This document shows positions 3,739 to 57,713 of a DNA stretch of 64,000 nucleotides, one piece after another. Under the pieces are notes generated by a model. The model was given only the letters and a program-made list of their open reading frames with translations. It ran no database searches and had not been told where the DNA came from. Positions within the stretch are counted from its first letter, which is position 1. Each line of letters starts with the position of its first letter. Source of the stretch: Chiloscyllium plagiosum (taxonomy: Eukaryota); NCBI RefSeq assembly GCF_004010195.1, contig NC_057719.1, positions 13,175,277 through 13,239,276 on the forward strand, given 5' to 3'. The translations under genes were made by a program, and so were the position numbers.

Positions 3739-4767
3739 TGATCCAAGGCTATGGGCCAATTGCTGGAAAAAGGGGAAGGAATAGTTAGTTGTTTTGTTTT
3801 GACTGGCGCAGACTCAATGGACTGAAGGGCCTTTCTTCTGTGCTGCCGATCTCAATGACCCAGTACAGCCTAAGGTTGTGTTAGTGAAAAACCATTGCTC
3901 TTCAGTCCAGTTGCAAATCCAGTCCCTGCCTATGGTCCTTCAATACATTCTGATTGCTCCCAAGTGAAACAGATTTTAACAGAAACACAATAAGCATGTA
4001 AAATGTTACGAGGTCAATAATAAGCAGATACCAAGTAAAATAATTTATGGTGAGTACACGTCTCTGCGAACTGCGTGAAATGAAAAGAAAATTACAAGGA
4101 GGACTGGGTGATCTATAAACAGCTCTGGAAATGTCAATATCAACTGTTGTATGTAATACGTCTTTATAGAAATTAAAGTACACTTTCCATTTATAATCCT
4201 GTTGAGTCATCGCAACATAACAATAAATTCAAGTAAAGTATCCCTGTAAATGGAATTCAGGTAATAGTGTATGTCCAAAAGCTTTTCTGGTTATACCATC
4301 CAAATCCTCTAATTCACTGAGGGATCGTGTGAACGAGCAAATGAGCTACTTCATGTATTGCGGAGCGCAAATGCGCTTAAAGAAATATAACGGCGTGATT
4401 AAATCATTTTGCCAAATCAAGACTTATTGCCTACTCTGAACATCAACTCACCCGCAATGTCCATTTATTTTTTTATTTACTCCTGTGTCTTCCCCACCCT
4501 ATTAGTCTGTTAAAGACGCATGCTCTGTTTATGCCTCCTGTCCTTGAACTGATGCATAATTGACTGAGGCTAGAGTGAGCGTAGAGCGCTGAGGAGTTCT
4601 GAAAAGGTTTGAATTGATACAGCTGCGGCTTGTTCATCTCCGCTCATGATGTGTTAACACAATAACAAAAGCCCGGATGCTTGCATCGTAAAATAGAGAG
4701 TGAAGCTGCAGGGGTTGCTTTCATGACAATAGCAGAAGTGACAGCGTTGACAACAAGCAGAAATAAA

Positions 4768-5047
4768 AAAACCGAGAGAACTGAGGTTGCTGCAAATCAG
4801 AAACAAAAACAGAAATTGCTGGAAAAGCTCTGCAGATCTGGCAGCATCTGTGAAGACAAATCTTGGCAGAGCAGACTCGCATGGTCTAATTTTGCCCCCA
4901 TATCTTATGATTTTATGAAAATCAGAGTTAACATTTTGCATGCGGTGACCCTTCCTCAGAACTCTGTGTTTTGAGAAAGAGTCACTGGATCTGAAGTGCT
5001 AATTCTGATTTCTCTTCACAGACGCTGCCAGATCTGCTGAGCTTTTC
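4768..5047. mobile_element. Foldback PLE-derived pLTR element (family C), old
   Basis: Inverted arms (ctggaaaagctctgcagatctggcagcatctgtg / cacagacgctgccagatctgctgagcttttccag); flanking repeat cagaaataaa at 4758-4767 and 5048-5057. Confidence 0.7.
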
Positions 5048-5484
5048 CAGAAATAAACAGGAATTTGGGTGAAGAGCTGGGAGCTGGTTTAAATGAGGTG
5101 AGAGCTGGTCAGTCACAGAGCCTGGTAGATTGTGAGCTTACAATGTTCGGAACTGACGATGAAGTTGACATTCTGAAAAGGGGAGCAACTGGAGGTCATG
5201 TTATAATCAAATATTGGAAAGGTGATTAGCTGCAACTTTGGAGGGTTGCCACAACGAAACAGAACAAGTATCAACGGACAGGACAGACCAGTCCCAATTT
5301 CACTTTCCTTACACTAGTTAGTTTTACTCAAAGATTTGCAAGCTTTTATAGACAGCCTTTATTTGGGGTTGCCATCTTGCTGTACCTGGGAAAGGAACAC
5401 ATGATGTCCATTGAAAATCTACCCAGACCAGGAGGCACTGGAGGACATAGCAGAAAATAATGACCACTATTTGGTCACTTCCCT

Positions 5485-7015
5485 TTTATTTATTCACGGG
5501 GCATGGGTATCACTGGCTAGAATAGCATTCATTGCCCAACCCAAATTGTCCAGAGGGCAGTTAAGAGTCAGCCACACTGCTATGGCCTGGAGTCACATAT
5601 AGGCCAGACCGGGTGAGGATAGCAGTTTCCTTCCTTCAAATACATTGATAGGACAAGATATTGATAGATTATGTGAATGGGCAAAGCTGTGGCAGATGGA
5701 TGTTAATATAAGTAAGTGTGAGGTTATCCATTTTGGACTGACAGAGTATAGTTCAGGGTATTTTTTAAACTAAGGAATCCAACAAAGTTTAAGGTTCAGA
5801 TGCTGAAATCTTTAAAATGCCAAGAATTAGTGCAGAAAATGGTCAAGAAAGTGAATGGGAATTCTGGCCTTCTTACTGATTAGGAATGATTAGCCATGAT
5901 CATGTTGAATGGTGGTGCAGGCTCGAAGGGCTGAATGGCCTACTCCTGCACCTATTCTCTATTGTCTATTGTCTTATCTAAAGGGCTGGAATAGAGGGAT
6001 GTAGACGTTAAGCTGAGGTTATACAAGACCCTTTTTAGACCCCATTTAGAGTAATGTGAGCAGATCTGAGCACCACACCTTGTGTTTTGCCCCTGGAGGG
6101 AGTTACAAGGATGATATCTGCACTTCAGGGGTTGAGTTGTGAGGAGAGATCAGACAAATTAGGCCTTTCTTTTCCTCGAGAAATTAGAGGGTTAAGGAGT
6201 GATCGAATCAGGATATTAACAGGGAAAGACAGGGTAGATAAAGATAAAGATTTCCACTGTTTGAAGATTCTAAAACTGTCTAAGAAGTAGGGCTAGGCTT
6301 CTCAGGAAAGATGTTAGAAAGCACTTGTACACACAAAGAGAAGTGAATGTTTGGAACTCTCTTCCTCAAATGGCGATTGGTGCTGTTTCAGTTGTTAGAT
6401 TTAAACCTGAGATAGGCAACTTTTTACTAAGCAAGGGGTATCAAGTTATATGGGCCTAAGGCAAGCATGAGATTAGGCCACAGATCAGCCAATATCCTAT
6501 TGAAAGGCAGAGCAGGCGAAAGAGACTGAATGGCATACTCCTGTTCCTATGTTCCAATGGCATTAGTGAACTCGGTAATTTGTTTCCCCAATAATTCACA
6601 GCAGTTTCATGCTCATCATTAAACACTTAATTCCAGACTTTTACTGAATACAAATGCCACTATCTGGCATGGTGGCATTCAAACTGGAGACCCCACAACA
6701 TTACGTGGGGTTTTTGGTTAATTCATTCAAGGACTAGGCCAGCATTAACTGCCCACCTCTAAGTGTTAAGCATCAACCCTAAGAGTCACAAGTAGGCCAG
6801 ACCACATAATGATAGCAGATTTCCTCCCCTAAAGGATATTAGTGAACCAGATGAGTTTTTCCCGACACTCGACAATGGTTTCACTGTCACCATTTGACCC
6901 ATATTTCAATTTTTAAAACTTTAATTCAAATTGCACCATCTGCCATGGTAGGATTTGATCCCATGACCCCAGAACATTATCTGGGTCTCTGGATTAATAT
7001 TACCATCATCTTCCC
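5485..7015 (-). mobile_element. Two tRNA-headed SINE-like copies (family of 63493), the first split by a + strand CR1 3' fragment (about 5648-6556)
   Basis: Shared body tgactccagaccc / aactgccctctg on the minus strand; CR1 C-terminus (ORF 6087-6290) and cctatgtt tail. Confidence 0.7.
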
Positions 7016-7037
7016 AAATGACATTATTATTCATATT

Positions 7038-7299
7038 TCATAGAATCTCTACAGTACGGAAGAAGGCCATTCAGCCCATCAAAGCCACACTGACCTGTTG
7101 AAGAGCATCCCACCCAATCTCCTGTAACCCTGCAGTTATACATGGTCGATCCACCTAACCTGCATATCTTTTGACTGGGGGAGGAAAGCCACGCAGAAAC
7201 GGGGATAATGTGCAACTTCTACACAGATGGTTGTTCAGGGGTGGAAGCGAACCCATGTCCCTGATGCTGTGACACAGCCACTGAGCCAGCATGCCACCC
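7038..7299 (-). mobile_element. HE1/V-type SINE, degenerate
   Basis: Reverse complement similar to the 23794-24108 copy. Confidence 0.75.
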
Positions 7300-8174
7300 C
7301 TTGCTTCCATCAGGCTTGTGGGTAAGTCCTTTATTAGCTCTGTCCATGTGGATGGGAATGGTGAGACTGGGGCAATCCAGTGACCCTTTCCTCAGGTTAA
7401 AAGAAGTTAATACCATGGTTGCCTCATTTGAGTGCACAATCTAATGGTGTTTGAGATTGCGAGACCTTGTGTGTTGTTACAAAGCCTGGAATAAGTTGAC
7501 CACTGCTTTAAGACATTAGTGGCCCATGGGGACAGAAATCTAATTCCTCATCCATCTAGCACTTCAATATAGGTCACAGAGCTCCAGCTTTGAAAGCCCA
7601 GACATTGAACAAACAGCCACAACAGACTACGAGCAACATCCTTTCGAATTTCATATCATTGATTCATTCCAAAAGTAGTTTAGATCCCTATGGGGACGGA
7701 CAGGCCAACTAGCTAACAGGTGTTGTTTATGGATACAAGTTTTACTGTCAAATGACGTGCGCTAGTTTTGAACAGAACAGCAGCTTCTCATTATGGTTTT
7801 GATCAGTGAGCTGGAGGGAACACTAAGGAGTAACAAAACCCCCCTCTTTGAACAGGAATGTGGTCTATTCCGAGTTGAATAAAATGGAATGAGGTGGTAA
7901 TGGGAGGAGGCTGGTGCGGAGGGAGGGCTAGTCAACATCAGATCCGATTAAAAACTAAATACTGTGGATGCTAGAAATTGAAATCAAAGCAAAAAGAGGC
8001 TGGAGAATGCTTAGCAACTTAGGTCACATGTGTGGAGTAGTCACTTTGATTTATTACAGTCGCGTGCACCAAGATAGAGTGAAAAGTGTTGTCTTACGTG
8101 CTCTACAGGCAGATTGTACTATGCAAGTGCATCACTTGTTCTGTGCATTCGGTCAACTTGTTTTGAAACCAGAC

Positions 8175-8990
8175 TTTCAGATTTAGATTTTATTGTCACG
8201 TTTGCTCAAGTACAGGCGTACACTGAAAACAGTATAATGCTACAACACGTGGTGCCATCTTAGGTGAAAGTGAGGACTGCAGATGGGCTGAAGCAGGGCT
8301 TATGCCCGAAACGTCGATTCTCCTGCTCCTTGGATGCTGCCTGATCTGCTGCGCTTTTCCAGCAACACATTTTTCAGCCATCTTAGGTACCAAAGTGCGA
8401 AAAAACGTAGTTACAAAATAGTAAAAGAAACAAAGTTAAAAACGTTAAGCATTACCTTCATAGAATAAAGTAGAAAAGTAAAGAAATAAGGCCTTAGTTC
8501 ACTTTAAAGCCCTTCTTAATATAAACCGGAAAAACAAAGGAATACATTTAAAATCTAGCAATCTTTGATGAGTCCGCCGCATAGCTCGCTGTCCAGGAGA
8601 CTTCAGCTGCCTGTTCTTGATGCCACCACCACAGATAGTGGAGGAGCCTTCCTCACCACTCACTCTCCCCATGTCAGGCCGCGATGCCATTGTTGCTGCC
8701 AGCCCAATGACCCCCTGCTGCCTCCGGAACATTGCCGGGCAGAACCCACTCACACGCCAAGAGATCGCCATGTGCCGCTGAGAGAACGGGTCGACAGAGG
8801 GAGGTGGGGGGTTTGGGGGAGCTGCTGAGAGGATGCCCCACCAGGCGTCTGTGCTGAGGCTGGGAGTAAAGGAAAGAAGGAAAGAAACAACAAAAGAGAG
8901 AATAAAAAGGGAAAACGAGAGAGAGAAACGAGACAGAAACAAGGAAGCTGAGGCTGAAATCTCCTGCTCTGTCAGCCTGCCATCTTGGAT
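8175..8990 (-). mobile_element. Non-coding retroelement with CAAGATGGC at its 5' end and a LINE-like 3' tail
   Basis: Minus strand starts ccaagatggc (8979-8988), has a GC-rich body, ends gtgacaataaaatctaaatctgaa; related 3' ends at about 21915-22060 and 29390-29520. Confidence 0.5.
8266..8376 (+). mobile_element. 111-bp PLE-derived insertion (inverted 20-nt tail plus HHR arm)
   Basis: 12-bp TSD gccatcttaggt (8254-8265, 8377-8388); HHR ctgaagcagggcttatgcccgaaacgtcga with one core substitution. Confidence 0.85.
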
Positions 8991-9011
8991 ACATGGTTAG
9001 CCTCTAAAAGG

Positions 9012-9530
9012 GGGCCTACCTGCTATAGGAAGGATATTGTGAAACTTGAAACAATTCAGAAAGGATGTTGCCCGGGTTGGAGGGTTTGAGCTATAGGGAG
9101 AGGCTGAACAGGCTGGGGCTGTTTTCCCTGGAGCATCGGAGGCTGAGGGGTGACCTTAGAGAGATGTATAAAATCATGAGGGGCACGGATAGGATAAATA
9201 GACAAAGTCTCTTCCCTGGGGTGGGGGAGTCCAGAACTAGAGGCCATTGGTTTAGGCTGAGAGGAGAAAGATCTCAAAGGAACCTAAAGGCAACTTTTTC
9301 ACTCAGAGGGCGGTGCGCGTATGAAATGAGCTGCCAGAGGATGTGGTGGAGGCTGGTACAATTGCAACATTTAAAAGGCATCTGAATGGGTATATGAATA
9401 GGAAGGGTTTGGAGGGATATGAGCCAAGTGCTGGCAAATGGGACTAGATTAGTTTAGGATATCTGGTCAGCATGGACGAGTTGGACCAAAGGGTCTGCTT
9501 CAGCACTGTACATTTCTATGACTCTATGAC
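9012..9530 (+). mobile_element. CR1 LINE 3' fragment (HER1-like)
   Basis: MLPGLEGLSYRERLNRLGLFSLEHRRLRGDL; ends ctatgactctatgac. Confidence 0.92.
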
Positions 9531-10424
9531 TGGAGAGGGGGGGGCTGCAGATCCAGATGAAATTCTGGAGGCTGTCTATCCTTCCTCCAGAGTGTCAGTG
9601 GAACCTCATTAAGTATATTTAAGGCAGAGGTCAATAGAGATCAATCTAGATACTCTTAAAATCAAGGGGTATGATCTAGAGTTGGTTCGAATGGTGTAAT
9701 TCCTATGTTGCTACGTTCCTATGTGTCAGTCACTGGGTTTGGCTTCTGAGCCTATAAACTTCAAGCAAGACTACTCCCATAGAACTGTACCCTCACCTTT
9801 GTCCCAATGTCTTCAGCAGGAGATGCTTAGAGGGATACAGACTGGGTTCAATATCTCTGTCCTCCCAGTAAAGATCTCACAAAGACAGGAATATAGAGCA
9901 GGCTTCTCTTACCTATTGAGTGGGACTTTCTGGGAAACCAGGGCCACAATCTACAGGGAAGGCAGGAAAGGACATTTTTGATCCTTGATGAGATTTTGAA
10001 GCATTCTCCGGCAATGATATGGAGAGTGAGTCAGTGGGAGTTAGGTGTGCTGTTTGAAAAACAGACTAACTGTTCCCAATGCCAGTGATAGTCAAAGAGC
10101 CCACATATGCACAGGTGGCTCCCGTGAAGTCAGGCAGCTAGAACAGGACTTGTGTTGCCAGGCTACAGCTGTGCTACACTAAATGATGCCAGTCTGCCAT
10201 TGTTTAAATGGGCCTGCATACAATGGTGTGGTGCTTGGTTGTTCCTCGCGATGATGCAGATACACAAACGCACCATCAACTCCCCAGTCTCAGAGGGCAG
10301 CAACATGACTCTCAAGTATTAGCTATGAATTAAAGATAAAACAGCTGGCTGACAAATATTTGTTCTCAGAATGTTTCCCCACATTGTTAGACAGTAGAGT
10401 TGTTTCTTAGAATTCTACTTTCAT

Positions 10425-10745
10425 AGGCCTAGATCGGGTGGACAGTGAGACCCTTTTTCCTTGAATGGTGATGGATAGCACGAGGGAGCATAGCTTTAAA
10501 TTGAGGGACAATAAATATAGGACAGATGTTCAGAGGTAGCTTCTTTACTCAGAGAGTAGTAGGGGCATGGAACGCACTGCCTGCAACAGTGGTAGTCTCG
10601 TCAACTTTAAGGGCATTTAAATGGTCATTGGCTACGCGTATGGGGTGAGAATGGAATAGTGTAGGTTAGATGGGCTTCAGATTGGTTTCACAGGGTGGCG
10701 CAACATCGAGGGCTGGAGGGCCTGTACTACTCTGTTATACTCTAA
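10425..10745 (+). mobile_element. CR1 LINE 3' fragment
   Basis: Highly similar to 14620-14946. Confidence 0.85.
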
Positions 10746-11829
10746 AAAAAGATATAGAGATGAAAACTGTGTTGAATATGTGTAATCTCACCAAACTCCA
10801 CACATGCCTTGTAAGACTCCACACTCAAACACACATGAAGTAAAATATAGGCACTTTCCAGCCTTTTAAACTGTGTCCTGTAGTTGTTACTTGTACCAGT
10901 GTGAGCATACGGGACAGTGCCATCTTTGTGCCAGGCAAACTGTTGTTCTGCCACTTGGCAGCCAAGAGGCACAGCAATGCTGTGGTTTCTACGAACAATG
11001 TCATATAACTGCGGCGTTCCTGGTAAACACCGCCATTGGGAAACTGGGATCAGAAAGTCATGGTAGAGTTGATCCATGCAACTGGCCAGAAATCTGTGTG
11101 TTCCCTTTGATGAAGATGGCTTCTGAGTCTTTGTGATGGACAATGCCCTCACTCCCTGTTTGGGAGCTGTAACATTAACAGTTACACAATGCGGCAATGC
11201 TACAGAAGAACATCACTGACGAAGAGTGACCCTTTCATTTCTCAACACACGCTTGGCAGGTAGGGTTCCTCTGCTAGTTGGGATTCTTGTCCAGTACTCC
11301 ACAAGTGCAACCCCACTCAATAGGCATGGCAATCCTGTCCAGCAAGGTCCGACAGTCCTGCCTCGATTTCCGCTGGGTGAACACAGCCACCATAGTCACT
11401 CTCCTGAAGATGCCAATTTAGGATAAATATGGAAATTAATTTCCACACAGGTTTTCCAGCTTGTCTCTTCTAATCACAGCACAGAAACCAATGGCTACTC
11501 CATAAAATGGACGGGAAGTCATAGAGGGGTGGTGAGGGAATTGTAGAACATCATTACAACTGCCCCCCACTCACCTAACCACTGCCCCACAACCCTTCCC
11601 ACACTGTGCCCCATCTACACAAAACCCAGAGTCTTTGGGTAATGCCTAGGGCCTAAGTCTGGCTTTGAAATATCCAGTGTTCAGAAGAGCGAGGACACAC
11701 AGTCACCCCATAATCCCATTTAGCATGGCCAATCCAGCTAACTTGCACATCTTTGGACGGTCGGAGTTACCAGGGGAAAGCAGTGGGGTACAGGGCTCTG
11801 GCACAGAGTCTGTCCCTCCTGCTCAGAAG

Positions 11830-12350
11830 GGAAAGGGGAAGAGGAGCAGAGCAGTAGTCATTGGGGACTCCATAGTTAGGGGGACAGATAGGAGGTTCTG
11901 TGGGGATGAGAGAGACTCATGGTTGGTGTGTTGCCTCCCAGGTACCAGGGTTCGTGATGTCTTTGATCGTGTTTCTGGGATCCTTAAGAGAGGAGGGGGA
12001 GCCCCAAGTCGTGGTCCACATAGGCACCAACGACATTGGTAGGAAGAGAGATAGGAATTTAAGGCAGAAATTCAGGGAGGTAGGGTGGAAGCATAGTGTT
12101 AGAATGAACAGAGTTGTTGTCTCTGGTTTGTTGCCCGTGCCACATGCTAGCGAGATGAGGAATAGGGAAAGAGAGGAGTTGAACACATGGCTACAGGGAT
12201 GGTGCAGGAGGGAGGGTTTTGGAATCTTGGATAATTGTGGCTCTTTCTGGGGTAGGTGGGACCTCTACAAGCAGGATGGTCTTCATCTGAACCAGAGGGG
12301 CACCAATTTCCTGGGGGGGGAAATTCGCTAAGGCTATTGGGGTGAGTTTA
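11830..12350 (+). pseudogene. CR1 ORF1 SGNH/GDSL esterase domain, frameshifted
   Basis: GDS block in ORF 11665-12042; GTND and DxxH blocks in ORF 11900-12331. Confidence 0.9.
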
Positions 12351-12977: not shown

Positions 12978-13138
12978 NNNNNNNNNNNNNNNNNNNNNNN
13001 NNNNNNNNNNNNNNNNNNNNNNNNNNNNNNNNNNNNNNNNNNNNNNNNNNNNNNNNNNNNNNNNNNNNNNNNNNNNNNNNNNNNNNNNNNNNNNNNNNNN
13101 NNNNNNNNNNNNNNNNNNNNNNNNNNNNNNNNNNNNNN
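12978..13138. other. Assembly gap (N run)
   Basis: 161 N. Confidence 1.
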
Positions 13139-16359: not shown

Positions 16360-16364
16360 CATTG

Positions 16365-17045: not shown

Positions 17046-18331
17046 GCCCACTGCAGTTTCCAGACTGATTGGCTATGAGTTGCCCCAGAAGGAGAATCGA
17101 GTTAAACTTTTGAATAATGCATAAAGTATCACTGTTTCTTAACTGGTTCTTCCTCTTAGGTTCCTGCCCAGCCCCATTCTCGGTCTAATAGCAATCCCAT
17201 CCTCTGGCCGATAACTAGCCCTTGTGGCGTAACTCATATTGAGTGACTGTAATAAACAGTGTGATGTTGGGTGGCCTCGGGACCTCATTGAACTTAGCAA
17301 TGGAGTTCAGGACCTTGGAGAGAAGATCCTACTTGAGATGGACAAGCTCGAAGACGATCATCCTGGTTGTTGAATTGAACTTGAAATCTAGGTCCAAGAG
17401 CATGAGAGGCCAGCATGGTAACTCCCCAAAGCAGCTGCCATTTACCACTCAGCCTGTTGTGTAGTTTATTTATAAAAACTTATTTTCTTCTGGATGAAAG
17501 TGAATAACAACTTATTGATGACCTATGCCTCGAACAAACAATTTTTGATTTCTCCAGCATTTTCTCTGATGTTTTATCCTGCTGTCTCCCTCTTTGCAAA
17601 CTAAAAAGAAATAGGGTTCAAGCTTTCCATTGTCAATTTTGCTGGCAATAATCTGACAAGTCTTTTCGTCGAACGCTGTCAGAGGCATTTCTGATCAGTC
17701 GGAGTATTGTAGCGAAATGCTGCCAAGTTAATCTTGCAAGGCTTAATGGAAAGACTTGGGTGAGATGTTGTACTGCAGGAGTCACCTCAACTGAAGTTAC
17801 CTTCAGTGAATCTGAATCACTGTTACCTGCTGAGTATCAGAGTCAGACAGTCATTCCAACACAATAAGCAATTTCCATTTAAATCCATAAGGATTTGGCC
17901 CCATATATATCATATTCCCAATGTATAAACATTGACAAATTCCAGCACACATAGAGTGAAAAAGCACTAAATATTGAATTATTTTATTTCTGTATTCAAG
18001 CCAACTTTAATTTGACAAACTGGTCTGTTTCTGCTGTCTTGTCAGTCAATCCATTAGGGAGGCTAATTGGTGCACAAGTGAAAGAACAGAAAACAAGATG
18101 AAGGACATGTTATGCAAATAAACAGCCCACAAATATATTTCTTGCATCACCTTGTATTTGTCTATAAATGAGCAGCATTTGAGGGTACTCAGCTGCAGTC
18201 AATGTGGCCATGTGATCTCCTGATGGTACCAAGGCCACCCTGCTACGCTGTGTGACTAAAACTCATTATGTAATGGCAGTCATGTGACAAAAGGTGGCAA
18301 CAATGATCCTCACTGAAAGGTTACATGAAAA

Positions 18332-19594
18332 AGTTTGTGAGAAGATTTGTAGCTCGGGTGCTCGTTGTTGTGGTTCTGTTCGCCGAGCTGGGAGTTTGTG
18401 TTGCAGATGTTTTGTCCCCTGTCTAGGTGACATCCTCAGTGCTTGGGAGTCTCCTGTGAAGCGCTTCTGTGATCTTTCCTCCGGCATTTGTAGTGGTTTG
18501 AATCTGCCGCTTCCGGTTGTCAGTTCCAGCTGTCCGCTGCAGTGGTCAGTATATTGGGTCCAGGTCGATGTGCTTATTGATTGAATCTGTGGATGAGTGC
18601 CATGCCTCTAGGAATTCCCTGGCTGTTCTCTGTTTGGCTTGTCCTATAATAGTAGTATTGTCCCAGTCGAACTCATGTTGCTTGTCATCTGCGTGTGTGG
18701 CTACTAAGGATAGCTGGTCGTGTCGTTTCGTGGCTAGTTGGTGTTCATGGATCCGGATCGTTAGCTGTCTTCCTGTTTGTCCTATGTAGTGTTTTGTGCA
18801 GTCCTTGCATGGGATTTTGTACACTACATTGGTTTTGCTCATGCTGAGTATCAGGTCCTTCGTTCTGGTGAGTTGTTGTCTGAGAGTGGCTGTTGGTTTG
18901 TGTGCTGTTATGAGTCCTAGTGGTCGCAGTAGTCTGGCTGTCAGTTCGGAAATGCTCTTGATGTATGGTAGTGTGGCTAGTCCTTTGGGTTGCGGCATGT
19001 CCTCGTTCCGTTGTCTTTCTCTTAGGCATCTGTTGATGAAATTAGACTCATAACAGCACACAAACCAACAGCCACTCTCAGACAACAACTCACCAGAACG
19101 AAGGACCCGATACCCAGCATGAGCAAAACCAATGTAGTGTACAAAATCCCATGCAAGGACTGCACAAAACACTACATAGGACAAACAGGAAGATAGCTAA
19201 AGATCCGCATCCATGAACACCAATTAGCCACAAAATGACACGACCAGCTATCCTTAGTAGCCACACACGCAGACGACAAGCAACATGAATTTGACTGGGA
19301 CAACACTACTATTATAGGACAAGCCAAACAGAGAACAGCCAGGGAATTCCTAGAGGCATGGCACCCATCCACAGATTCAATAAATAAGCAAATCGACCTG
19401 GACCCAATATATCGGCCACTGCAACAGACAACTGGAACTGACAACCGGAAGCGGCAGATTCGAACCACTATAAATGCCGGAGGAAAGATCACAGAAGCGC
19501 TTCGCAGGAGGCTCCCAAGCACTGAGGATGTCACCTAGACAGGGGACGAAACATCTGCAACACCAACTCCCAGCTCGGCGAACACAACTGCAAC
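18332..19594. mobile_element. Tail-out foldback Penelope-like element (family A) with GIY-YIG arms
   Basis: Minus arm encodes LPYIKSISE...VVYKIPCKDCTKHYIGQTGR; plus arm 19042-19594 is its inverted copy; 14-bp TSD aggttacatgaaaa (18318-18331, 19595-19608). Confidence 0.95.
19519..19558 (+). ncRNA. Minimal type I hammerhead ribozyme motif (family A), stem III CpG-decayed
   Basis: GCA-CUGAGGA-u-GUCaCCU-AGAC-AGGgGAC-GAAA-CA-UC-UGC. Confidence 0.7.
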
Positions 19595-19724
19595 AGGTTA
19601 CATGAAAAGATATCACAGGCATTCTATAACCATGGGCTCTTATGTGCATCTTACCCCATGCCCACTATTATTGTTATTGCTATGTGCATTGCAACGTGTT
19701 GGCGAGTAGCGAGTTTTATCAGTA

Positions 19725-46760: not shown

Positions 46761-47238
46761 TGATTGACAAAGCTAGTTTATTGCATAGTACTTAATAGCT
46801 AGTTACATTGCAACAAAGTAACATGATAGTCTCTTGTGATAAATCAGACTGGCTACATTACTATAAGTTACATGAAAAATAGAACTGGAACAACTCAAAA
46901 CTGAACTGAGAAGAGGTAGACTGGTTAGCTCCTTCCAAGGACAGACCTCTATATCCTGATGAGCAGAGCCTATCTCCTAATGTCAGTTAACCATTTCAGG
47001 TTACTGATGGAAATGTGTTGCTGGAAAAGCGCAGCAGGTCAGGCAGCATCTAGGGAACAGGAGAATCGACGTTTCGGGCATTAGCCCTTCTTCTAATGCC
47101 CGAAACGTCGATTCTCCTGTTCCCTAGATGCTGCCTGACCTGCTGCGCTTTTCCAGCAACACATTTCCATCTCTGATCTCCAGCATCTGCAGACCTCACT
47201 TTCTCCTCATTTCAGGTTACTAGCCTCCTTACACAACA
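46761..47238 (-). mobile_element. Probable LTR hosting the 47006 hairpin
   Basis: Minus strand starts TGTTGTGT and has AATAAA near its end (46777-46782); no TSD seen. Confidence 0.4.
47006..47207. mobile_element. 202-bp PLE-derived perfect foldback insertion
   Basis: 78-bp perfect inverted arms (47006-47083 / 47094-47171), 36-nt tail, 14-bp TSD catttcaggttact (46992-47005, 47208-47221). Confidence 0.95.
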
Positions 47239-47552
47239 CCTCATTTTAATCAGTCTACCATTGCTGGCCAGGCTTTCAGCTGCCTGGATTCAAGGGCCTG
47301 GAGTTTTTCCCAAGATAGTCTGCCTCCCTACACTTTCTTTCTTGAAGACCACTCTTCAAAGATTATCCTGATAACTCTTCCATGATTAAGTGTCAGGTTT
47401 TACCCAATTAGCCTCCTGTGAAGCCCCTTGGAGTGTTGTATGACGTTAAGGAATCTATAGGAGAAAGTGAGGTCTGCAGATGCTGGAGATCAAAGTTGAA
47501 ACTTTATTGCTGGAACAGCACAGCAGGTCAGGCAGCATCCAGGGAACAGGAG

Positions 47553-47588
47553 ATTCGACGTTTCAGGCACAGGCCCTTCTTCAGGAAT
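47553..47588 (-). ncRNA. Minimal type I hammerhead ribozyme (family B), intact core
   Basis: AUUC-CUGAAGA-a-GGGC-cugu-GCCU-GAAA-CG-UC-GAAU. Confidence 0.85.
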
Positions 47589-47855
47589 GAGCAGAGAGTG
47601 TTCAGCAGGAGAAGATAAAAGGTAGGGAGGAGGGACTTGGAGGAGGGGAGTTGGAAGTGGAGGAGATGCGGTGGAGGGCACCGTCGACCACGTCGCCTTC
47701 CTGACCTGCAGTCTTCTTGTTGACCTCTCCGCCTCCATCCTACTCCGACCTATCACCCTCACCTTGACCTCTTTCCACCTATCACATTTCCAACTCCCCT
47801 CCTCCAAGTCCCTCCTCCCTACCTTTTATCTTCTCCTGCTGAACACTCTCTGCTC

Positions 47856-47891
47856 ATTCCTGAAGAAGGGCCTGTGCCCGAAACGTCGAAT
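47856..47891 (+). ncRNA. Minimal type I hammerhead ribozyme (family B), intact core
   Basis: AUUC-CUGAAGA-a-GGGC-cugu-GCCC-GAAA-CG-UC-GAAU; predicted cleavage after C47887. Confidence 0.88.
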
Positions 47892-48672
47892 CTCCTGTTC
47901 CCTGGATGCTGCCTGACCTGCTGTGCTGTTCCAGCAATAAAGTTTCAACGTTAAGGAATCTATAGAATTACAAGCTGATAATGTCGTGAAATGCAGCAAT
48001 GGAATTTCTGCCCACTTCCAAAGAGCACAGAGGGAATGACTTCCATGCTGTGTCCATATGCAAATGACAGAGTTAGGACAGGACAGTCTTACTGCTGTCC
48101 TGGTGAGGATGTGAAACCTACTTAGCAGCTGCTAGGAGGAATCCCCAATTCCCTATTGAACCAGCATTGCTTTGTACATCTAACCCCAGCCTGACCTCCT
48201 TTAAATTGCAGACAGCAAGCTCTCCACACTAACGTTCTTAAACAGGATGTTCAGGGCTTTTTTAGCTGGGCTTCTAACTCCCATCTGTTCTTCCTGTTTG
48301 GATGGTGCTGCTTTTCCACAATACTAACATTCCTGTTGGTGTCAACACTAATTAAGAGCCAAACCTTGCTTCTGATTCCCCTTTTTAGCAGACCAAGACT
48401 GACTAGCTTGTACAGACAGAACAACAAATGAGGACATACTGCTTTTTTTAATGAGTTGTGCACTGTTGGAGGGCTATTAAGGATTGCAATGCCAAAAAGC
48501 ACATGGAATATTTCCATATTGCAGCAAATACAGAATGTTCTTCACAGTAAATCTCCCCACGGAGATGACATTGTTGGATTCTATGATGTCCCTTTCAAGC
48601 TCCCCAGGAACTGAGGTCCATGGGAAATCTCCTAAAAGCTGTAATGAAGCTGTTGTAATGGATGGCATCCTT

Positions 48673-48986: not shown

Positions 48987-49024
48987 ACTCTCTTGAGTCG
49001 AGAGGAATCCTGTATTTTCGAGGG

Positions 49025-49330: not shown

Positions 49331-49377
49331 ACCTTCTGGTTGCTGAATGGATGGAACTGATTGAACTCACGATGAAC

Positions 49378-49510
49378 TTCCTCATGAAGAGCTTTTGCCC
49401 GAAACATTGATTTTCCTGCTCCTCGGATGCTGCCTGACCTGCTGTGCTTTTCCAGCGCCACTCTAATCTAGACTCTGGTTTCCAGCATCTGCAGCCCTTG
49501 TTTTTACCTT
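49378..49510 (+). mobile_element. PLE pLTR fragment with decayed HHR and tail
   Basis: ctcatgaagagcttttgcccgaaacattga...ccagcatctgcagcccttgtttttacct. Confidence 0.8.
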
Positions 49511-50239
49511 CAAGCCTATAATAGGACATCATCATTTCCCTTGCAGCAGTCAGCAATACCCTAAAACATCGAAGAGAAAATTAAAAATCTAAACGCAACC
49601 TTGAGAGAAAAAGTGGCAGCAGCACTAATGACTGATCATCATCATGATGCCAATAATTTTAAGATTAGATACAGTGTAATGAGATGTATTTCCTGCTGGC
49701 ACCATACAGAACTCATTATAGACTGCCCTAATGGAGTGTCAGGCCCTTAACAGATCCTCTGTACTGCAATATGATATAATGATTGTTTTGCATTCCACCC
49801 CACAAGTACTGGTGTTAGCCCAGATCTTCAATGTACTGAGCAAACCCAATACAAAAGAACTTTGTGTTCCACAGGGCTTTAAATTGAAAGGATTTCTTGG
49901 AATTACAATTCATGAAAAAAAAACTTGTCATGGAGTGTTGTTCAAGAGAGGCATCAAAATGTGCTTCGCATCATCAGAAGTATTAGAATGACAAAAGGAT
50001 GTTTTTAAAAAGTCGAAATGATAAATGAGATGAGAAAGAGATGGAAGACTCAGTGGGGAAGAATCCAGCTGTTTGTCACATTTCAGCAACTTGCTATTTC
50101 CATTAAAAAGCACCTGGAATCATGGCAAGGACCAGGAAATGGGGATGCAACAACAGGGAGGAAACGAAACCAAATTTTGAGAGCGAGAATACCACTGGAG
50201 TAAGAAGTAGTAAGATATTAGGCAGGATTGGAGTAAAAG

Positions 50240-51270
50240 AGAATGCAATATGATCTAAATTAGACTCACAATGCATACATGACATCTGGTAACGAAGTTT
50301 GGTGAGCTTCAGGCACAGATCATCAGTAGAAATGTGATGGTTTGGCAATAGTGGAGATCTAGCTCAAAAACTGCAGGACTGCGTAGTGAATACTACTTGG
50401 TCCAGGAATTATTGAGCTGTAAAGAGTGGGAAAGAGGAGACAGCATTGATGATAGAGAATGGGTAGTTGCAGAAAAAGGATTTCCTGACTGCATCAAGGA
50501 TCTAATTAGTTAAAACAAGAAAAAAATGGTACCGTTCCACCACTGGGTACATTCTATCGATCACCGACCAGTGGGGAAGTTACAGGAGAACAAATTGAGA
50601 TGGAAAGTACAAAGATACAAACATAAACAGTAGTCATATGGTGGATCTCAGGCCAGAATAGTAACTGTGTAAAGGCAGAAACAAAGAGGTTTCAACAGTG
50701 TGGAGGAGAAATAGTTTGGCCCATAGGTTTCTGGCCCTGATAAGGGAGGCTTCGTTATTAGGTCAGTATGAAACCATTTAAATAGAGGCGTGGAGAATGA
50801 GGTTATGGTGAAATTTCATCAATAAAAAATATGTGGTTTCACCTCATTTGGAGCATTGTATTCAATTCTAGGTGCCACACTTTGGGAGGGAAAGAAAGAT
50901 AATAATTAGAGAGTTCGCTGAAAAGATTCATGTGAATGGGTCCAAGTTTGAGTGAATGTAGTTTTTTGGGTAGATGAGAGAAGCTTAGGCTCTTGTCCTT
51001 AGAGAAGATACAGTTTTGATAGAGGTTTTTAGTCATGAGATGTTTGGGCAGAGTGAATAGAGAGATTCTGTTCCCATGGGTGAGATACTTGAGAGTGAGA
51101 GGACATTGATTACTTCAAGATACAAAGGCAACATGAAAAAAGCCTTTTTCCAGCAGCGAATGACTAGAACGCACTGTCTGAGAGTCTGTGGAAGGAGCTT
51201 CAATGGTCACTTTCAAAACAGACTTGGATCATTATTGAATAGGAAAGAAATCACCAGGGTCTGGGACACG
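50240..51270 (+). mobile_element. Heavily degraded CR1 relic (APE and 3' parts)
   Basis: Residual GTFYRSP, EHCIQF and KAFFQQR motifs. Confidence 0.6.
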
Positions 51271-51278
51271 GTTGAATG

Positions 51279-51482
51279 TGGAGAAAGTGAGGACTGCAGA
51301 TTCTGGAGTTCAGAGTCGAGAGTGTGGTGCTGGAAAAGCACAGCAGGTCAGGCAGCATAGGAGCAGGAGAGTCAACGTTTTGGGCTCTTCATGATGAAGG
51401 GCTTCTGCCTGAAACTTCAATTCTCCTACTCCTCAGCTGCTGCCTGACTGGCTGTGCTTTTCCAGCACCACATTCTCGAAAA
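51279..51482. mobile_element. Foldback PLE-derived insertion, older
   Basis: Inverted arms, about 37-nt tail on the left, TSD ggttgaatg (51270-51278, 51483-51491). Confidence 0.85.
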
Positions 51483-51647
51483 GGTTGAATGCATCATATA
51501 TTCTCCATACTTCCAAACCTTTAACATTCAAGATTAGAATGGCTGAACATGACAATGTGCAGTTTTGGTCTCTTTATTTAAGGTAGGTGGATATTCATTG
51601 AGTGGCAAGCTGTTCTAGGAATGGAGCCTCACAGCATTTTATTAAAA

Positions 51648-51981
51648 TCATAGAACCCTTACAGTGTGGAAGTAGGTCATTCGGCCCAACAGGGCCACAC
51701 CGACCCTCTGAACAACATCCCACCCAGATTCACCCTACATTTCCTATGGCTAATCCACCTAACCTACACATCTCTGCACACAATGGACAATTTAGCATGG
51801 CCAATCCACCTAACCAGCACATCTTTGGACTGTGGGAGGAAACTGGAGCACCCCGGTGGAAACCCACACAGTCACGGGGAGAATGTGCAAACTCCAAATA
51901 GACAGTCACCTGAGGCTGGAATTGAATCCAGTCCCTGGTGCTGTGAGGCAGCAGTGCTAACCACTGAGGCACTGTGCTGCC
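51648..51981 (-). mobile_element. HE1/V-type SINE
   Basis: Reverse-complement V-domain and tRNA head. Confidence 0.88.
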
Positions 51982-52133
51982 ACAAGTCTGGTAAGATGGG
52001 GCCTGATTCAGGGAGGAGGGATGCTAGAGGGGTGGAATAAGTAATTAATGATGTGTTTGGTAAGAGGTGTTGAGAAATCTCATTGGGCCTTAGGGCAAGA
52101 TCTTTCCAAAAACCTTAATGCAGCTTACACTTA

Positions 52134-52225
52134 CAGCATTCCTGAAGAAGGGCCTGTGCCCGAAACGTCGAATCTCCTGTTCCCTGGATGCTGCCTGACC
52201 TGCTGTGCTGTTCCAGCAATAAAGT
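52134..52225 (+). mobile_element. 92-bp HHR-only PLE-derived insertion
   Basis: 15-bp TSD tgcagcttacactta (52119-52133, 52226-52240); matches about 47855-47944. Confidence 0.93.
52138..52173 (+). ncRNA. Minimal type I hammerhead ribozyme (family B), intact core
   Basis: Same motif as 47856-47891; predicted cleavage after C52169. Confidence 0.88.
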
Positions 52226-52274
52226 TGCAGCTTACACTTAGCCATACTAATGCAGGATTCTGCTTGATCATTTG

Positions 52275-53040
52275 GCTCTGTGGTTAGCAGTGCTGCCTCA
52301 CAGCATCAGGTACCGGGGTCTGATTGCAGCCTCAGGCAACTGTCTGTGTGGAATTTGTATGTTCTCCCCGTGTCTGTGAAGTTCCTCTGGGTGGTCTGGA
52401 TTCCTGTCTAAAGATGTGCAGGTTAGGATTGACAGTGGGAAATGCAGGGTTAGGGTAGGTCTGGGCGCGCTCTCTTAGGAGGGTTGGTATGGACTTGATG
52501 GGCCAAATGGCCTTCTTTCACACTGTAGTGATTCTATGTAGGGAGTCCAGAGTTAAGGGACATTGTTTAATATGAGGCCACAGTGAATTTCTTGTTTCTA
52601 TATTTCTTGTCTTGAGTGGCCCTGGAGAAGGTTCAGAAAGGATTGACAATGATGATGATGCTGGAAATGGGATATGATAATATTTAAGAGTACTGAACCA
52701 CCTGGAGTTTTTATCTCTGGAAGAGAAGGCTGCAGAGATATTTAAAATTATGAAATGGTTTGATGGAGGGGGACACAGAGAAAATAGCTGTGGAGGCATT
52801 CAATACTGGCAGCTGTAAACATAGAATAGTCACAAATGAATTCAACAAGAAACTCAGCAGAAACCTCAGTATCTGGAGAGTAGCTGCTTATAAGAAGCAG
52901 CTGATTGAATAACATAGGTACATTTAAGGAGCAGTTAGACAAGTACAGGATAAAGGAATAGAAGGATATGCTGGTAGAATTAAACAAAGTTGGATATGAA
53001 GGGACAGATATGGAGTTGGGTTAAATGGCCTGTTTCATTG
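52275..53040 (+). mobile_element. HE1 SINE (52275-52537) followed by a degraded CR1 3' relic
   Basis: SINE head ggttagcagtgctgcctcacag; CR1-like LSLEEK relic. Confidence 0.7.
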
Positions 53041-53042
53041 CT

Positions 53043-53235
53043 AAAATAAAAGTAAATTACTGCGGATGCTGGAATCTGAAACCAAAAGAGAAAATGCTGG
53101 AAAATCTCAGCAGGTCTGACAGCATCTGTAAGGAGAGAAAAGAGCTGACGTTTCGAGTCTAACTGACCCTTTGTCAAAGCTAAAAAAAGGGCAGAAATAG
53201 GGAGGTATTTATACGAGGCTGAGAGAAGGTGAGCA
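53043..53235 (-). mobile_element. PLE pLTR (family C-like) with variant HHR core
   Basis: Minus strand gct-ttgacaa-agggtcagttagactc-gaaacgtc-agc. Confidence 0.7.
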
Positions 53236-53982
53236 TAGCAATAAAGAGATGATAATGACAGTGCATAGAGGGTTTTATTGCTATGCTTGCAACATGCAAG
53301 TTATCTATTGAGATTGCAGGGAGAACTGAACATGTTACATTTTGCACTACAATCCTTATACAATCTTGCCATTTACTGTACTTCACCTTTATACTGGACA
53401 AGAGTCAATTGTTGAAAACTGAATATATCTTTAATTTATGATGTATTCCAGTGGGAACATTGTTCCCATTTATTGAATTAACAACAATGTGAATTAGGGA
53501 ATACAATGCATGCTAGTTAATGACGATTTTGCTCATTTAAAAAAAAAACTGTATTTTTCAAATGTGGAATTCATTATTTCACTATCTGTGAATTAAAAGT
53601 ATGTAGTTCACTTGCTGTTTCATTTTAATTTTAAATGAAGGAGCATGGAATCCTAATTAGATTTCTCTGCCTGAGACTGAAATTGAGAATGAATTCCAAT
53701 GAGATATCTTGTAACACAGAGGCAATGATTGGCAGCTGGAATAAGCCAGGACCTGATCAGGAGCTGCCACCAGGGAGATTGGTTTTGAACTTATCCCAAC
53801 TGATTGCACCATCCCAGTTCAGAAGCACAAAACCTTGCAGAGTAGAGAGGTTTGTGGGTTAGCAAAGGGAATGGAGAGTGAATCTCATCAGATGACTTGT
53901 TCTGTTGGGCTAGGAAATAAAAGCCTGTTCTAAAAAGCCTCTCTCTCTCTCTCTCTCCCATTGACATCTTGATTACTCGACG

Positions 53983-54410
53983 GAAGTGGGTACTGCAGAG
54001 GCTGGAGATCAGAGTGGTGCTGGAAAAGCACAGCAGGTCAGGCAGCAGCCGAGGAGCAGGAAAATCGACGTTTCGGGCAAAAGCCTTTCATCAGGAATAG
54101 AGGCAGGGAGCCTCTGGCGTGGAGAGATAAATGGGAGGGGGGTGGGGCTGGGCAGAAGGTAGGTGAGAGTGCGATAGGTGGATGGAGGAAGGGGTAAAGG
54201 TGATAGGTCGGAGAGGAGGGTGGAGCAGATAGGTGGGAAGGAAGATTGACAGGTGGGACAGGTCATGAGGATGGTGCTGAGCTGGAAGGTTGGAACTGGG
54301 TAAGATGGGGGGGAGGGGAAATGAGGAAACTGGTGAAGTCCACACTGATGCCCTGGGGTTGAAGTGTTCCGGGGCAGAAGATGAGGCGTTCTTCCGCCAG
54401 GGTAGTGAGG
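53983..54410 (-). mobile_element. PLE 3' fragment (family B) with HHR at 54063-54098
   Basis: Minus strand attc-ctgatga-aaggcttttgccc-gaaacgtc-gatt. Confidence 0.9.
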
Positions 54411-55074
54411 GATTCTTTCCCATTGCAGCATAGGTCTGGACCCTGAATGAGGGGTGTTTTAGTTTCACTTTTGATTTTGAAATCCTGTGAAGTCCTTGGA
54501 ACAATGTTGTTGAGAAGGGAATGATAGATATCGTGAATTGGATTACCTCAGTAACCTCGAACACCAGGCTGACCCATCACAAGTACGGTTTGTTTGTCTG
54601 CAGGTCTCACTGCAGTGCTAAGTACTTTCTTTTACCCTGGAAATGCTTTGTTCACTTGCCATTGCCTTCAGTCAGAAGGACAAAAGCAACATCAATGTGG
54701 AAACACCATTATCTCCAATGTTCCCTCCAATTTCACAACTCCAAACCCCCTTATGTGGACAGTATTCCTTCCCCATGTCTGATTCGTAATCTTTCCCTAA
54801 TCCCAATATGGAAGAACTCTCAGCACAAGCACTGAGGGGAATGGGGAAGGTGAACATTTTCACCCTGTTTCCACTGTTATGATCTCAGCTGATACTATTA
54901 CCAAACAAGTCAGATCCCAGTCAGGAACCTGGCCTGAGAGATCATATTTTAATTCATGTTGGTTTTGACAAAGAGGTCTTTCACTGAAACATAAGTATGC
55001 AATGCTGCAAAGTTTGCTTCTTTTTGATTCATTCATGGGAGAAGAGCATCGCTGACTAGGCCAGCATTTACTGC

Positions 55075-55985
55075 CCATAAGACCATAAGATATAGGAGCA
55101 GACATTGGGCCATTCAGCCCATCAAATCTGCTCCACCATTCAATCATGGCTGGTAAGTTCATCAACCCCATTCTCCTGCTTTGTCCCTGTAATCCTTGAT
55201 TCCCTTGAAATCTCTCTCAGTCTTAAATATACTAAATGACCTGGCCTCCACAGCCTTCTATGGCATTGATTTCCATAGACTCACCAGTCTCTGGCTGAAT
55301 CTCCATTTTAAAGTGTCTTCCCTTTACTCTAAGGCTATGTCCTCGGGTCCGAGTCTCTCCTACCGATTGAAGCATCTTCCCAACATCTACTCTGTCAAGG
55401 CCATTCAGTATTTTGTATGTTTCAATTAGATTCCATCTCATCCTTCTAAACTCCATCTAGTGGAAACCCAGAGTCCTCAAATGTTCCTTACTTTTCATTC
55501 CTGGGACCATTCTCGTGAACCTCCTTTGAACCCACTCCAAGGCCAGTACTTTGTGAGATATGGGGCCCAAAACTGGGCACAATATTCTGAATGTAGTCTG
55601 ACCAGAGCCTTAAAGAACCTCAGAGGTACATCCCTGCTTTTATATCTAAGTCCTCTCAATAAATGCCATCACTGCATTTGCCTTAACCACTGACTCAACC
55701 TGCAAGTTTATCTTGAGAGAATTCTGGACAAGAATGCCCAAGTCTCTTTGCACTTCTGAATTTTCTTCCTATTTAGAAAATAATCCATGCTTTTATTCTT
55801 CCACTCAAAGTGCATGACCTGACACTTTCCCACGTTATACTCCATCTGCCACTTCTTTGCCGACTCTCCTAGCCTGTCCAAATCCTTCTGCAGCCTCCCC
55901 AACTCCTCAATGCTACCTGTCCCTCTACCTAACTTTGGATCATTTGCAAACATGGCCAGAATGCCCTCAGTTCCTTCATTGTCCA
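55075..55985 (-). mobile_element. CR1 3' part nested in a tRNA-headed SINE-like copy (about 55020-55075 and 55985-56520)
   Basis: FANDPKLG...WQMEYNVGKC; the SINE continues on both sides. Confidence 0.85.
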
Positions 55986-56227
55986 TTCCTAATTGCCCAG
56001 GGAGTTGTCAAGAGTTAACCACATTGCTGTATGGCTCGAGTCATTAGTAGGTCTGACTGGGTAAGGATGGCAGTTTCCGTCCCTAAAGGACTTTAATGAA
56101 CCAGATGGGTTTTTCCAACAATTTCCAATGGATTAATGGTCATTATTAGACTCAATTCCAAATTTTTATTGAATTCGAATTCCACCATCTGCTGTGGTAG
56201 GATTTGAACCAAGAACCGCGGAACATT

Positions 56228-56482
56228 GTAACAACCGAGAGAAATGTGGATGCTGTAAATCAGAAACAAAATCAGAAAGTGTTTGAAAAGCTCAGCAAGT
56301 CTGTAAGCATCTATGGAGAGAAATCCGAGTTAATGTTTCGGGTCGAGTGACCCAATTTCTGAACTCTGAACTCCTCAGAACTGAGGTTCTGAGGAAAGGC
56401 CACTCGACTGAAATGTTAACACTGATTTCTCTCAACAGATGCTGCCAGACCTGCTGAATGTTTCCAGCAATTTCTGTTTTTG
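56228..56482. mobile_element. Foldback PLE-derived insertion (family C) inside a SINE
   Basis: Inverted arms, about 39-nt tail on the left, TSD gaacatt (56221-56227, 56489-56495); HHR relic gttctgaggaaaggccactcgactgaaatgttaac. Confidence 0.8.
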
Positions 56483-57713
56483 CCCCCAGAACATTATTCT
56501 GGATTAACAGTCTAGTGATAAAGACAATAACACTGAATTTTATTATAAAAGGAATGATGGTAAAATAGAATAATCCAAACTACCTACCTATAAACACAAA
56601 TTCAAAGTATAATTAAACTCCAGTTAATCCCAAATTCTCCTTTATAAATAGAAAGAAAAAGACGGCTTTTTTATAGTGCACAAAACGCACCCCTGGTATA
56701 GTTCCCAGCACACCACTTGTATAATGCTTACACCAGAGACTCTTGGTTGGTCTGGGGGACTTGTGCTGCAACCTTTGGAAATGCTGGAGCTACCACATGC
56801 ACTGGAGCTTTACTGTACTCAGAGTTATGTATCCACATCATGGTGTTTTAACCCAACATTTCCAGGCTGAGGCTAATACTAACTTCTCATGCCAAGGAAA
56901 TTTTATTCACTATATCTATCATTCCCTCCTCTGGAGCACTACTCTACACAGCTATCTTTTCCAATGACTTCGCAGGACTGCCTCACTTAAAGTCAAAAGT
57001 GAAATTAACAGTCTCTCTCTCAGCTTAAGTTTTTTATAAAAAAGGAGACTCCAGAGCACTCCAACAAATCTTTGAGGTCCTAATATTTACCATGCTGGAT
57101 TTCCAAACAACTCAAAGTCCAATAACAATCCATAAGTACATGAAATCCATTCACTCTACAGCCAGGCTTTGAGAGCAGTTTTAAAAGTAATCACCATAGT
57201 TACAAAAATATTTACACACCTATTATTAACTTTCAACATATCTAAAAACCCACCAGTTACTAATTTAAAAACCAGCAACTCCAACTCACAACAAGTCAAA
57301 TTAGAATATGTAAATCCCACATTTTTACAACATACCAGGAGCAGTGCTATACCCATGTCTCTCCCAAGTTGCATTTCTATTGCTCCCACTAACAGATGGG
57401 CAGATATGGAGCCAGTAAACACTACAGAGAAACCCATAAAATAAAATCTTAGCTCTTTGTTTAAGGATTCATTCCTCAGTGGGTTTGTTTTTTTCTGTAT
57501 GTACATAGTATGTTAAACAATTGTGCTGCTGTGCAGTAAATGCCACACTCAGTCAGAAAAAATAAAGTCAGGACTCTATTACAAACATACAGGAGAAACT
57601 CAAACTCCTAATTCTCTCTCTTTCTCAAAGTCTCTGTCTTCCTTTCTGTCACTGAAAGTCTCTCAAAGCTGCTCACTAAATCCCTAAACCTCTGTTTTGT
57701 TCGCCGATTCGGA

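Follow-up and report, generated by a model that had tools for sequence, protein, structure and literature searches.

We analysed a stretch of 64,000 nucleotides (nt) of the Chiloscyllium plagiosum genome (RefSeq assembly GCF_004010195.1, contig NC_057719.1, positions 13,175,277 to 13,239,276, forward strand), here called the window, which contains seven insertions built of oppositely oriented ends of Penelope-like elements (PLEs). The insertions are head-to-head ends of one Penelope/Poseidon-type family (B) and two Neptune-type families (A and, probably, C). In each of them one arm carries a short 3' tail and the other does not, and both arms were probably made by two primings on one RNA of the pseudo-long terminal repeat (pLTR). 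The asymmetry of about 35 nt between the arms is the published PLE 'tail', that is, the distance between the two start sites of reverse transcriptase (RT). Each insertion is named below by its first position in the window, and its target-site duplication (TSD) is given.

4768-5047: family C foldback; TSD 10 nt (4758-4767 and 5048-5057); left arm tailed (minus strand), right arm tail-less.
8266-8376: family A insertion; TSD 12 nt (span 8254-8388); 20-nt tail-only stub at 8266-8285 (minus) opposite a tail-less arm at 8288-8376 (plus).
18332-19594: family B (Penelope/Poseidon-type) foldback; TSD 14 nt (span 18318-19608); tailed arm 18332-19042 (minus), tail-less arm 19045-19594 (plus); asymmetry 34 nt.
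47006-47207: family A foldback; TSD 14 nt (span 46992-47221); tail-less arm 47006-47093 (minus), tailed arm 47093-47207 (plus).
47461-47947: family A foldback; TSD 18 nt (span 47443-47965); left arm tailed (minus), right arm tail-less (plus).
51279-51482: family A foldback; TSD 9 nt (span 51270-51491); left arm tailed, right arm tail-less with three untemplated A.
56228-56488: family C foldback; weak exact 7-nt TSD (span 56221-56495); left arm tailed, right arm tail-less.

The original prediction had described seven TSD-flanked insertions with two PLE 3' ends pointing outward. All of them were located as claimed and their TSDs were exact, that of 56228 being weak. It had counted three PLE families; two of these, A and C, have a conserved box of 32 nt and the tail sequence in common. 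The near-constant asymmetry in five insertions was also reproduced when measured from the TSDs (36 nt in 47006, 36 nt in 47461, 34 nt in 51279, 33 nt in 56228 and 34 nt in 18332). The value for 51279 is 36-37 nt without the three untemplated A, and that for 56228 is 34-39 nt depending on the placement of its decayed ends. Insertions 4768 and 8266 likewise pair one tailed with one tail-less arm, in a geometry differing from the other five; the tail-less arm of 4768 is trimmed back into the conserved box (53 nt). The arms of 47006 are 100% complementary across 79 nt, 51279 is an older copy whose hammerhead ribozyme has decayed, and 56228 is an old copy with arms 78% complementary. Both element ends have short matches within the 18-nt TSD of 47461. 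The tailed arm of 4768 is split near 4863-4918 by about 55 nt of unrelated sequence, which we take to be a piece resembling the tail of a short or long interspersed nuclear element (SINE/LINE).

The same pairing was found across the genome. The window and 160 stretches of 10 kb (1.66 Mb in all) yielded 343 A/C boxes that were kept, and the reversed-sequence control for these boxes gave 0 matches. pLTR boxes neighbouring within 600 nt were head-to-head in 60 cases, versus 9, 7 and 6 for the other orientations. Exactly one tail was present in 54 of these 60 pairs and in every head-to-head pair with a TSD score of at least 9 (48/48; 44/44 outside the window), against an expectation of 50% from unpaired copies (102 tailed, 108 tail-less). 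The arms of 39 of the 48 TSD-confirmed pairs differed by 31-40 nt. For family B, counted without TSD scoring, all 11 pairs with both ends seen were one-tail pairs.

A genome-wide pattern for one young subfamily matched 1105 centres, and its control matched 0. The first 50 centres (chromosome 1, chosen by centre only) gave 49 parsed loci, L211 being dropped. One arm extended to the tail tip in 47 of the 49, the other arm was 31-40 nt short in 40, and two tails occurred in none. The TSDs at these loci were mostly 14-15 nt long (range 11-18 nt).

Empty sites with exactly one TSD copy, a check proposed with the original prediction, were found in related species for the three insertions compared (47006, 47461 and 18332). 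Contigs of organism B lacking 47006 and 47461 (X5) skip 216 nt (202+14) and 505 nt (487+18), and the skip at 18332 in the same organism (X5, X8) is 1277 nt (1263+14). The 47461 site is also empty in organism C (X14). An assembly artefact, or chance adjacency of independent insertions, could be suspected because, in two contigs from another individual, the sequence crossing insertion edges is just 27 and 22 nt long, less than the required 31 nt. Each two-armed unit, however, has one TSD pair, the empty sites are exact, and neither the orientation bias nor the count of centres against their control fits such an origin, which we regard as highly improbable. The organism C contig without 47461 (X14 contig 3; window 47153-47442) ends in sequence resembling the tailed arm of 47006, with 23 differences and 12 gaps; this end may be either a separate nearby insertion or a loose alignment.

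The chemistry of the two start sites has been described for PAc, a Poseidon element of the green anole. Both target strands are cut and extended in vitro, RT starts at two internal sites in or near an AC-rich stem-loop, the tail is the sequence between these sites, and the hammerhead is not needed (PMC11167929). The insertions analysed here resemble PAc in two-strand extension and in two internal start sites bounding the tail, and family B has an AC-rich stem-loop at the inner site. The available text of that paper does not treat inverted insertions or the pairing of sites, Neptune-type elements lie outside its tests, and the steps after the first priming are described there as yet to be validated. 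It reports no homology at priming, whereas a match of 1-4 nt between target and RNA was found at the inner site in 30 of 40 cases here (30% expected).

We propose the following course of events. The element protein would cut both target strands, with about 13-15 nt between the cuts, and each of these strands would prime its own cDNA on the same pLTR RNA, one cDNA beginning at the tail tip and the other about 35 nt further in. An RNA stem of 7-9 bp would lie between the start sites, where it could anchor a protein dimer and thereby set their distance. End-joining may then unite the 3' ends of the two cDNAs. A related process is twin priming of LINE-1 (L1), in which another cDNA is begun on the same RNA from the second target strand; the product has a 5' inversion within one TSD and microhomology at the join. 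The second priming of L1 occurs at a variable upstream site and the two parts do not overlap. The start sites here, in contrast, are fixed 35 nt apart, and hence the arms overlap and form a hairpin.

The original prediction had each nicked strand priming its own cDNA, one from the RNA terminus and one from a site inside. Two primings are the best supported part of that proposal, but the tailed end is not the RNA terminus. The tail continues into the open reading frame (ORF) in long copies (L271, L283), and the tailed ends of L291, L293 and L296 run 3-8 nt into the ORF start. Both start sites are internal. No common sequence was seen beyond the tail tip in a random sample. In a single case (L268:564 versus L271:613) the element body begins 2-3 nt past the tail tip, as it would in a unit-length copy from tail tip to tail tip.

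The inner site can also act without the outer one. A tail-less solo copy in the window has its own TSDs, which shows that the inner site alone can form an insertion end:

52134-52225, plus strand: solo tail-less family A copy; TSD 15 nt (span 52119-52240); full hammerhead core.

The shape of the arms bears on how the second arm was made. Self-priming and 'EN-mediated resolution', EN being the element endonuclease, have been suggested in the accessible text of PMC3846280 and PMC8557442. A single tail-primed cDNA would then fold back and copy itself outward, and would be halted or cut by EN about 35 nt short of the tip, with later deletions skewing the centre. Such self-copying would give arms with alleles in common, a tailed arm that is almost always complete beside one sometimes short at its outer end, and it is also compatible with microhomology at the centre and inner end. 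But it requires the tail-less arm to be nested in the tailed one. At the 47 centre-picked loci with a complete tail, the tail-less arm was longer toward the 5' side in 30, the tailed arm in 13, with 4 ties. In the 48 pairs of the box sample, whose junctions were mapped with 43 long copies as reference, the tail-less arm went further 5' in 23, the tailed arm in 14, and 11 were ties; in L012, L109 and L120 the tail-less arm was longer by hundreds of bases. L292 and L294 combine a short tailed arm with a long tail-less arm of unique content, solo tail-less copies have TSDs of their own, and 8266 has only a tail stub. Since the arms are staggered and each often holds sequence absent from the other, neither arm is likely to have been copied from the other, unless later deletions were very common. 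We therefore consider self-copying unlikely.

The two arms appear to have a common source. Minor alleles were common to both arms in 10 of 14 cases, versus 3.7% when shuffled, which suggests that both arms came from one source or were converted later. Microhomology of at least 2 nt was present at the centre in 21 of 30 clean joins (20% for random joins), a count that omits 17 of the 47 loci whose centres carry insertions or mutations. Staggered arms, common source alleles and centre microhomologies of 2-3 nt together favour two primings on one RNA over self-copying. Two primings on two RNAs of one source locus, held by an asymmetric protein dimer, would explain the staggering and the allele sharing equally well, and a dimer is predicted in the available text of PMC11167929. 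This version needs an extra asymmetry to bar tail-tail and inner-inner pairs (0/48), while one RNA with one site of each kind needs none; we judge it about as improbable as self-copying, if anything slightly more so.

The proposed RNA stem is predicted in both clades. In families A and C it forms between the tail and the start of the box, with 92-99% pairing at 7 positions in 137 copies. The tail of 47006 illustrates it:

47172-47207, plus strand: 36-nt tail of 47006; its first half and the start of the conserved box (47127-47158) form a 7-9-bp stem.

Family B has a different 7-bp stem, which closes the AC-rich loop and in which subfamilies differ by one compensatory change. Measured from the 3' strand of the stem, the inner end is about 9 nt before it and the tail tip about 19 nt after it in both clades. 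The stub of 8266 ends within the 3' strand of the stem, as if the tail-primed cDNA had stalled there. Other tail-only stubs opposite tail-less arms were seen at L128:7899 and L129:1671, and stub lengths including that of 8266 are 20-37 nt.

Recurrent centres raise the question of whether the hairpins move whole. MITEs (miniature inverted-repeat transposable elements) are short, terminally inverted, TSD-flanked and high in copy number. Short MITE-like or retrozyme-like units, each family derived from a master hairpin with fixed ends, would account for identical centres at many loci, and such centres exist: the junction of 47006 was exact at 8 loci genome-wide, another simple junction class recurred at 188 loci, and the inversion breakpoint of 47461 was exact at 309. 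In contrast to MITEs, which have symmetric fixed termini and a fixed short TSD, the insertions here have unequal ends, variable centres and a retroelement source, with TSDs of 11-18 nt. In two classes, a given simple centre had the tail now on one arm, now on the other (3:3 and 2:3). One minor haplotype was spread across 5 junctions, and two junction classes contained both haplotypes. Most arms are without a full hammerhead, the junction of 18332 was unique among 40 scored candidates, and the 47461 template exceeds the hairpin. Mobile hairpin units with fixed ends are refuted by the variable ends and tail side, and such whole-unit movement appears very unlikely.

Identical junctions had been proposed as a mark of remobilisation. 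For simple junctions this test does not hold, since microhomology hot spots produce the same junction repeatedly; given also the tail on either arm and the absence of haplotype linkage, they are most likely independent events. The 47006 junction was considered as a lineage and dropped, as it accounts for 8 of about 1105 centres, has no private alleles and includes one copy with the tail on the opposite arm. Eleven of 12 copies in this class have the same orientation, a skew not fully explained, for which a lineage is a possible reading.

The test did identify one remobilised centre, that of 47461:

47630-47709, plus strand: compound centre of 47461, made of antisense 3'-untranslated region (3'-UTR), an antisense ORF fragment (47647-47695) and the sense 3'-UTR of the right arm.

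This centre, with its two breakpoints and ORF fragment, was 100% identical over 80 nt at 40/40 scored loci, and 37 of the 41 exact-breakpoint loci on C1-C3 recur in that scored set. Not all 309 breakpoint loci are hairpins, since L119 has the breakpoint and no left pLTR. Exact patterns placed the tail on the left in 23 copies and on the right in 106, and about 180 matched neither; L297 is in both lists, among the matches listed (100 of the 106 tail-right ones). An inherited centre with the tail on either side indicates that the centre was copied and the ends were re-made. The window copy, L291, L292, L293, L294, L296 and L297 have TSDs of their own; no TSD was found at lineage copies L289 and L290. 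At L289, the tail-less left end of the hairpin adjoins a sense-oriented ORF stretch of about 400 nt from the same family.

Longer members of the lineage suggested what the template was. L292, L294 and L297 are TSD-flanked inserts of 800-811 bp, each with one tailed and one tail-less outer end; past the left pLTR they carry 130-150 nt of ORF start, to which a further arm is joined. The template was therefore probably longer than the hairpin, taking in no less than 130-150 nt of the ORF start past the left arm. The extra outer arm of L292 and L294 matches the right arm and not the adjacent left pLTR at 4/4 sites. In tail-left copies the right-arm letter at 47540 was present in 19 of 23, and it was absent in two readable copies without a left tail. 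This allele pattern would be expected from one long RNA that already carried the inversion and was primed twice on its right-hand pLTR. On such a template the first cDNA would pass the old junction and the second would anneal to the first, and we propose that in this way the centre is inherited and the ends are made anew. Two variants defined by common changes just right of the junction (about 30 and about 13 of 100 matches listed) form sub-lineages and suggest several successive masters. The original prediction that hairpins may remobilise as non-autonomous ribozyme elements thus holds for the inheritance of the 47461 centre; the short hairpin as a mobile, ribozyme-dependent unit was unsupported.

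Several observations weigh against two primings on one RNA. Six of the 60 close pairs break the one-tail rule (2 two-tailed, 4 tail-less), none with a TSD score of at least 9, and at L290, beside an assembly gap, both ends lack a tail and no TSD was found. Because the A/C stem hardly varies, it offers no covariation; z-scores for the folding of isolated arms are only -0.7 and -1.9, and the stem is present in 72 of 111 predicted folds. Shortening of the outer end is nearly confined to the tail-less arm (8-9 of 49), as would also be expected if the second arm were extended outward and ended prematurely. In the in vitro work, as far as its accessible text goes, start sites did not differ between strands, and pairing of one site with the other within one event was untested (PMC11167929). 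Gene conversion between the arms, or the use of two RNAs from a single locus, could account for allele sharing. The tracing in the 47461 lineage comes from two informative loci, and several masters with differing alleles could mimic it for short copies.

The assignment of the families follows from their coding parts. Endonuclease-bearing (EN+) PLEs have RT followed by a C-terminal GIY-YIG EN with two cysteines in the core, and the long copies of family A carry RT motifs and then GIY-YIG (Pfam E 2.4e-4, just under the cut-off). A CX2-5CxxC motif in the RT-EN linker marks the Neptune and Nematis clades, while Penelope/Poseidon is without a linker zinc finger, according to the available text of PMC8557442. 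Family A has CX4CxxC in the linker (L046, L053, L253), and together with RT and GIY-YIG this makes it Neptune-type. In addition, pLTR, tail and ORF are continuous in L271 and L283, and minimal hammerhead cores were found in 47461, 18332 and 52134, as in pLTRs of EN+ PLEs. We take family A to be Neptune rather than Nematis. Family C has a decayed EN upstream in L023 and L139; its linker motif is unreadable in such decayed copies, and C is tied to A by the common box and tail. Family B was assigned to EN+ PLEs from the EN piece (161 aa in 18332), in which no linker zinc finger was found, fitting Penelope/Poseidon. Its features are:

18549-19031, minus strand: end of a GIY-YIG ORF inside 18332 (Pfam GIY-YIG E 0.03, under the curated cut-off).
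19518-19560, plus strand: minimal type I hammerhead core in the tail-less arm of 18332.

Calling all seven 'ribozyme insertions' was an overstatement. The full minimal core is clear in two of the seven, in both arms of 47461 and in one arm of 18332; no core was found in 4768, 8266, 47006 (neither arm) or 51279, and that of 56228 is doubtful. An Rfam scan returned no hammerhead and only weak hairpin matches to microRNA models under the gathering score. Arm ends piling up at the hammerhead cleavage site were sought and not found (6/108 at 15-19 nt upstream of the box, with no excess over neighbouring positions).

The 5' ends of family A cluster at the hammerhead's 5' edge, 41-55 nt upstream of the box, in 51 of 108 paired arms and 46 of 121 unpaired copies of the 1.66-Mb sample (e.g. 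52134). This cluster may mark a transcription start or a strong RT stop. In Drosophila virilis an intron ends at the hammerhead 5' edge, as stated in the accessible text of PMC4209133; no common upstream exon was seen at the family A cluster. In 108 of 133 tailed A copies the frame that starts at an ATG in the box stays open through the tail, versus 47 and 8 for the other frames (example, window 47127-47207). The long ORF of L271 and L283 is in a different frame from that of the box ATG. Family A copies with open frames of 967-1248 codons lie at C19:68501213, C17:2721617 and C19:724457 of the genome. Two further PLE copies were seen in the window. An older Neptune-type copy at 2273-3750 (RT thumb, linker, EN, hammerhead) has a 256-nt inverted piece at its 5' side, and both outer ends are short of the box. 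In a tail-less family B end at 1-424, about 80 nt are duplicated internally; the other end of this copy falls beyond the window.

Part of this picture is known. Inverted PLE insertions with a 30-40-bp tail on one of their ends have been reported before (PMC3846280, PMC8557442, PMC2377424). The insertions here are like those inverted-pLTR insertions of EN+ PLEs in the inverted 5'-truncated copy, the TSD around the whole unit, the tail at one end, and a pLTR and tail that cover the ORF start. As far as those papers' accessible text goes, the tail is optional or frequent and self-priming or EN resolution is favoured, whereas we found a near-strict one-tail rule and staggered arms; most units here are also only 150-250 bp long, unlike the published ones. 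Dual minimal hammerheads 100-700 bp apart on opposite strands are reported in PMC4209133, and non-LTR (long terminal repeat) retrozymes are described as non-autonomous PLE derivatives in bioRxiv 10.64898/2026.07.22.740005, both as seen in their available text. Retrozymes are likewise non-coding derivatives of PLE pLTRs with minimal type I hammerheads. In the part of that work available, they form direct tandem arrays with a hammerhead per unit, while the pairs here are inverted, with hammerheads mostly broken and no ends piling at the cleavage site; direct neighbours numbered 13 versus 60 head-to-head, and a clear full core is present in 2/7.

The core observation is thus known, as both the tail asymmetry and the two-start-site chemistry are published. 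Our literature search, thin on subscription papers and made without Repbase, found nothing on a one-tail rule, PLE twin priming or an inherited PLE hairpin lineage. Not found in print were the strict one-tail pairing with staggered arms from the same template, the stem geometry common to the clades (on which the supplementary figures of PMC11167929, outside the search, may bear), and an inherited foldback centre with rebuilt ends. A more ambitious scheme, which we put forward tentatively, is that double priming is obligatory: a dimer on one RNA stem would make one cDNA per side, with the same geometry in Neptune and Poseidon. ORF-less foldback RNAs could then spread as a new non-autonomous element, the centre being inherited and the tail and ends rebuilt at each insertion (about 300 copies in the 47461 lineage).

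In conclusion, how PLEs complete integration, and why inverted repeats with a one-sided tail result, is an open question. The rule of one tail-tip start and one inner start on the same template, with staggered arms, is sharp and can be tested directly in the existing in vitro system. By extrapolation from 60 pairs in 1.58 Mb, the genome carries on the order of 100,000 such events, and for 47461 one foldback centre was shown to be inherited. For annotation, these results carry a warning: MITE-looking hairpins and identical junctions can arise by retrotransposition.

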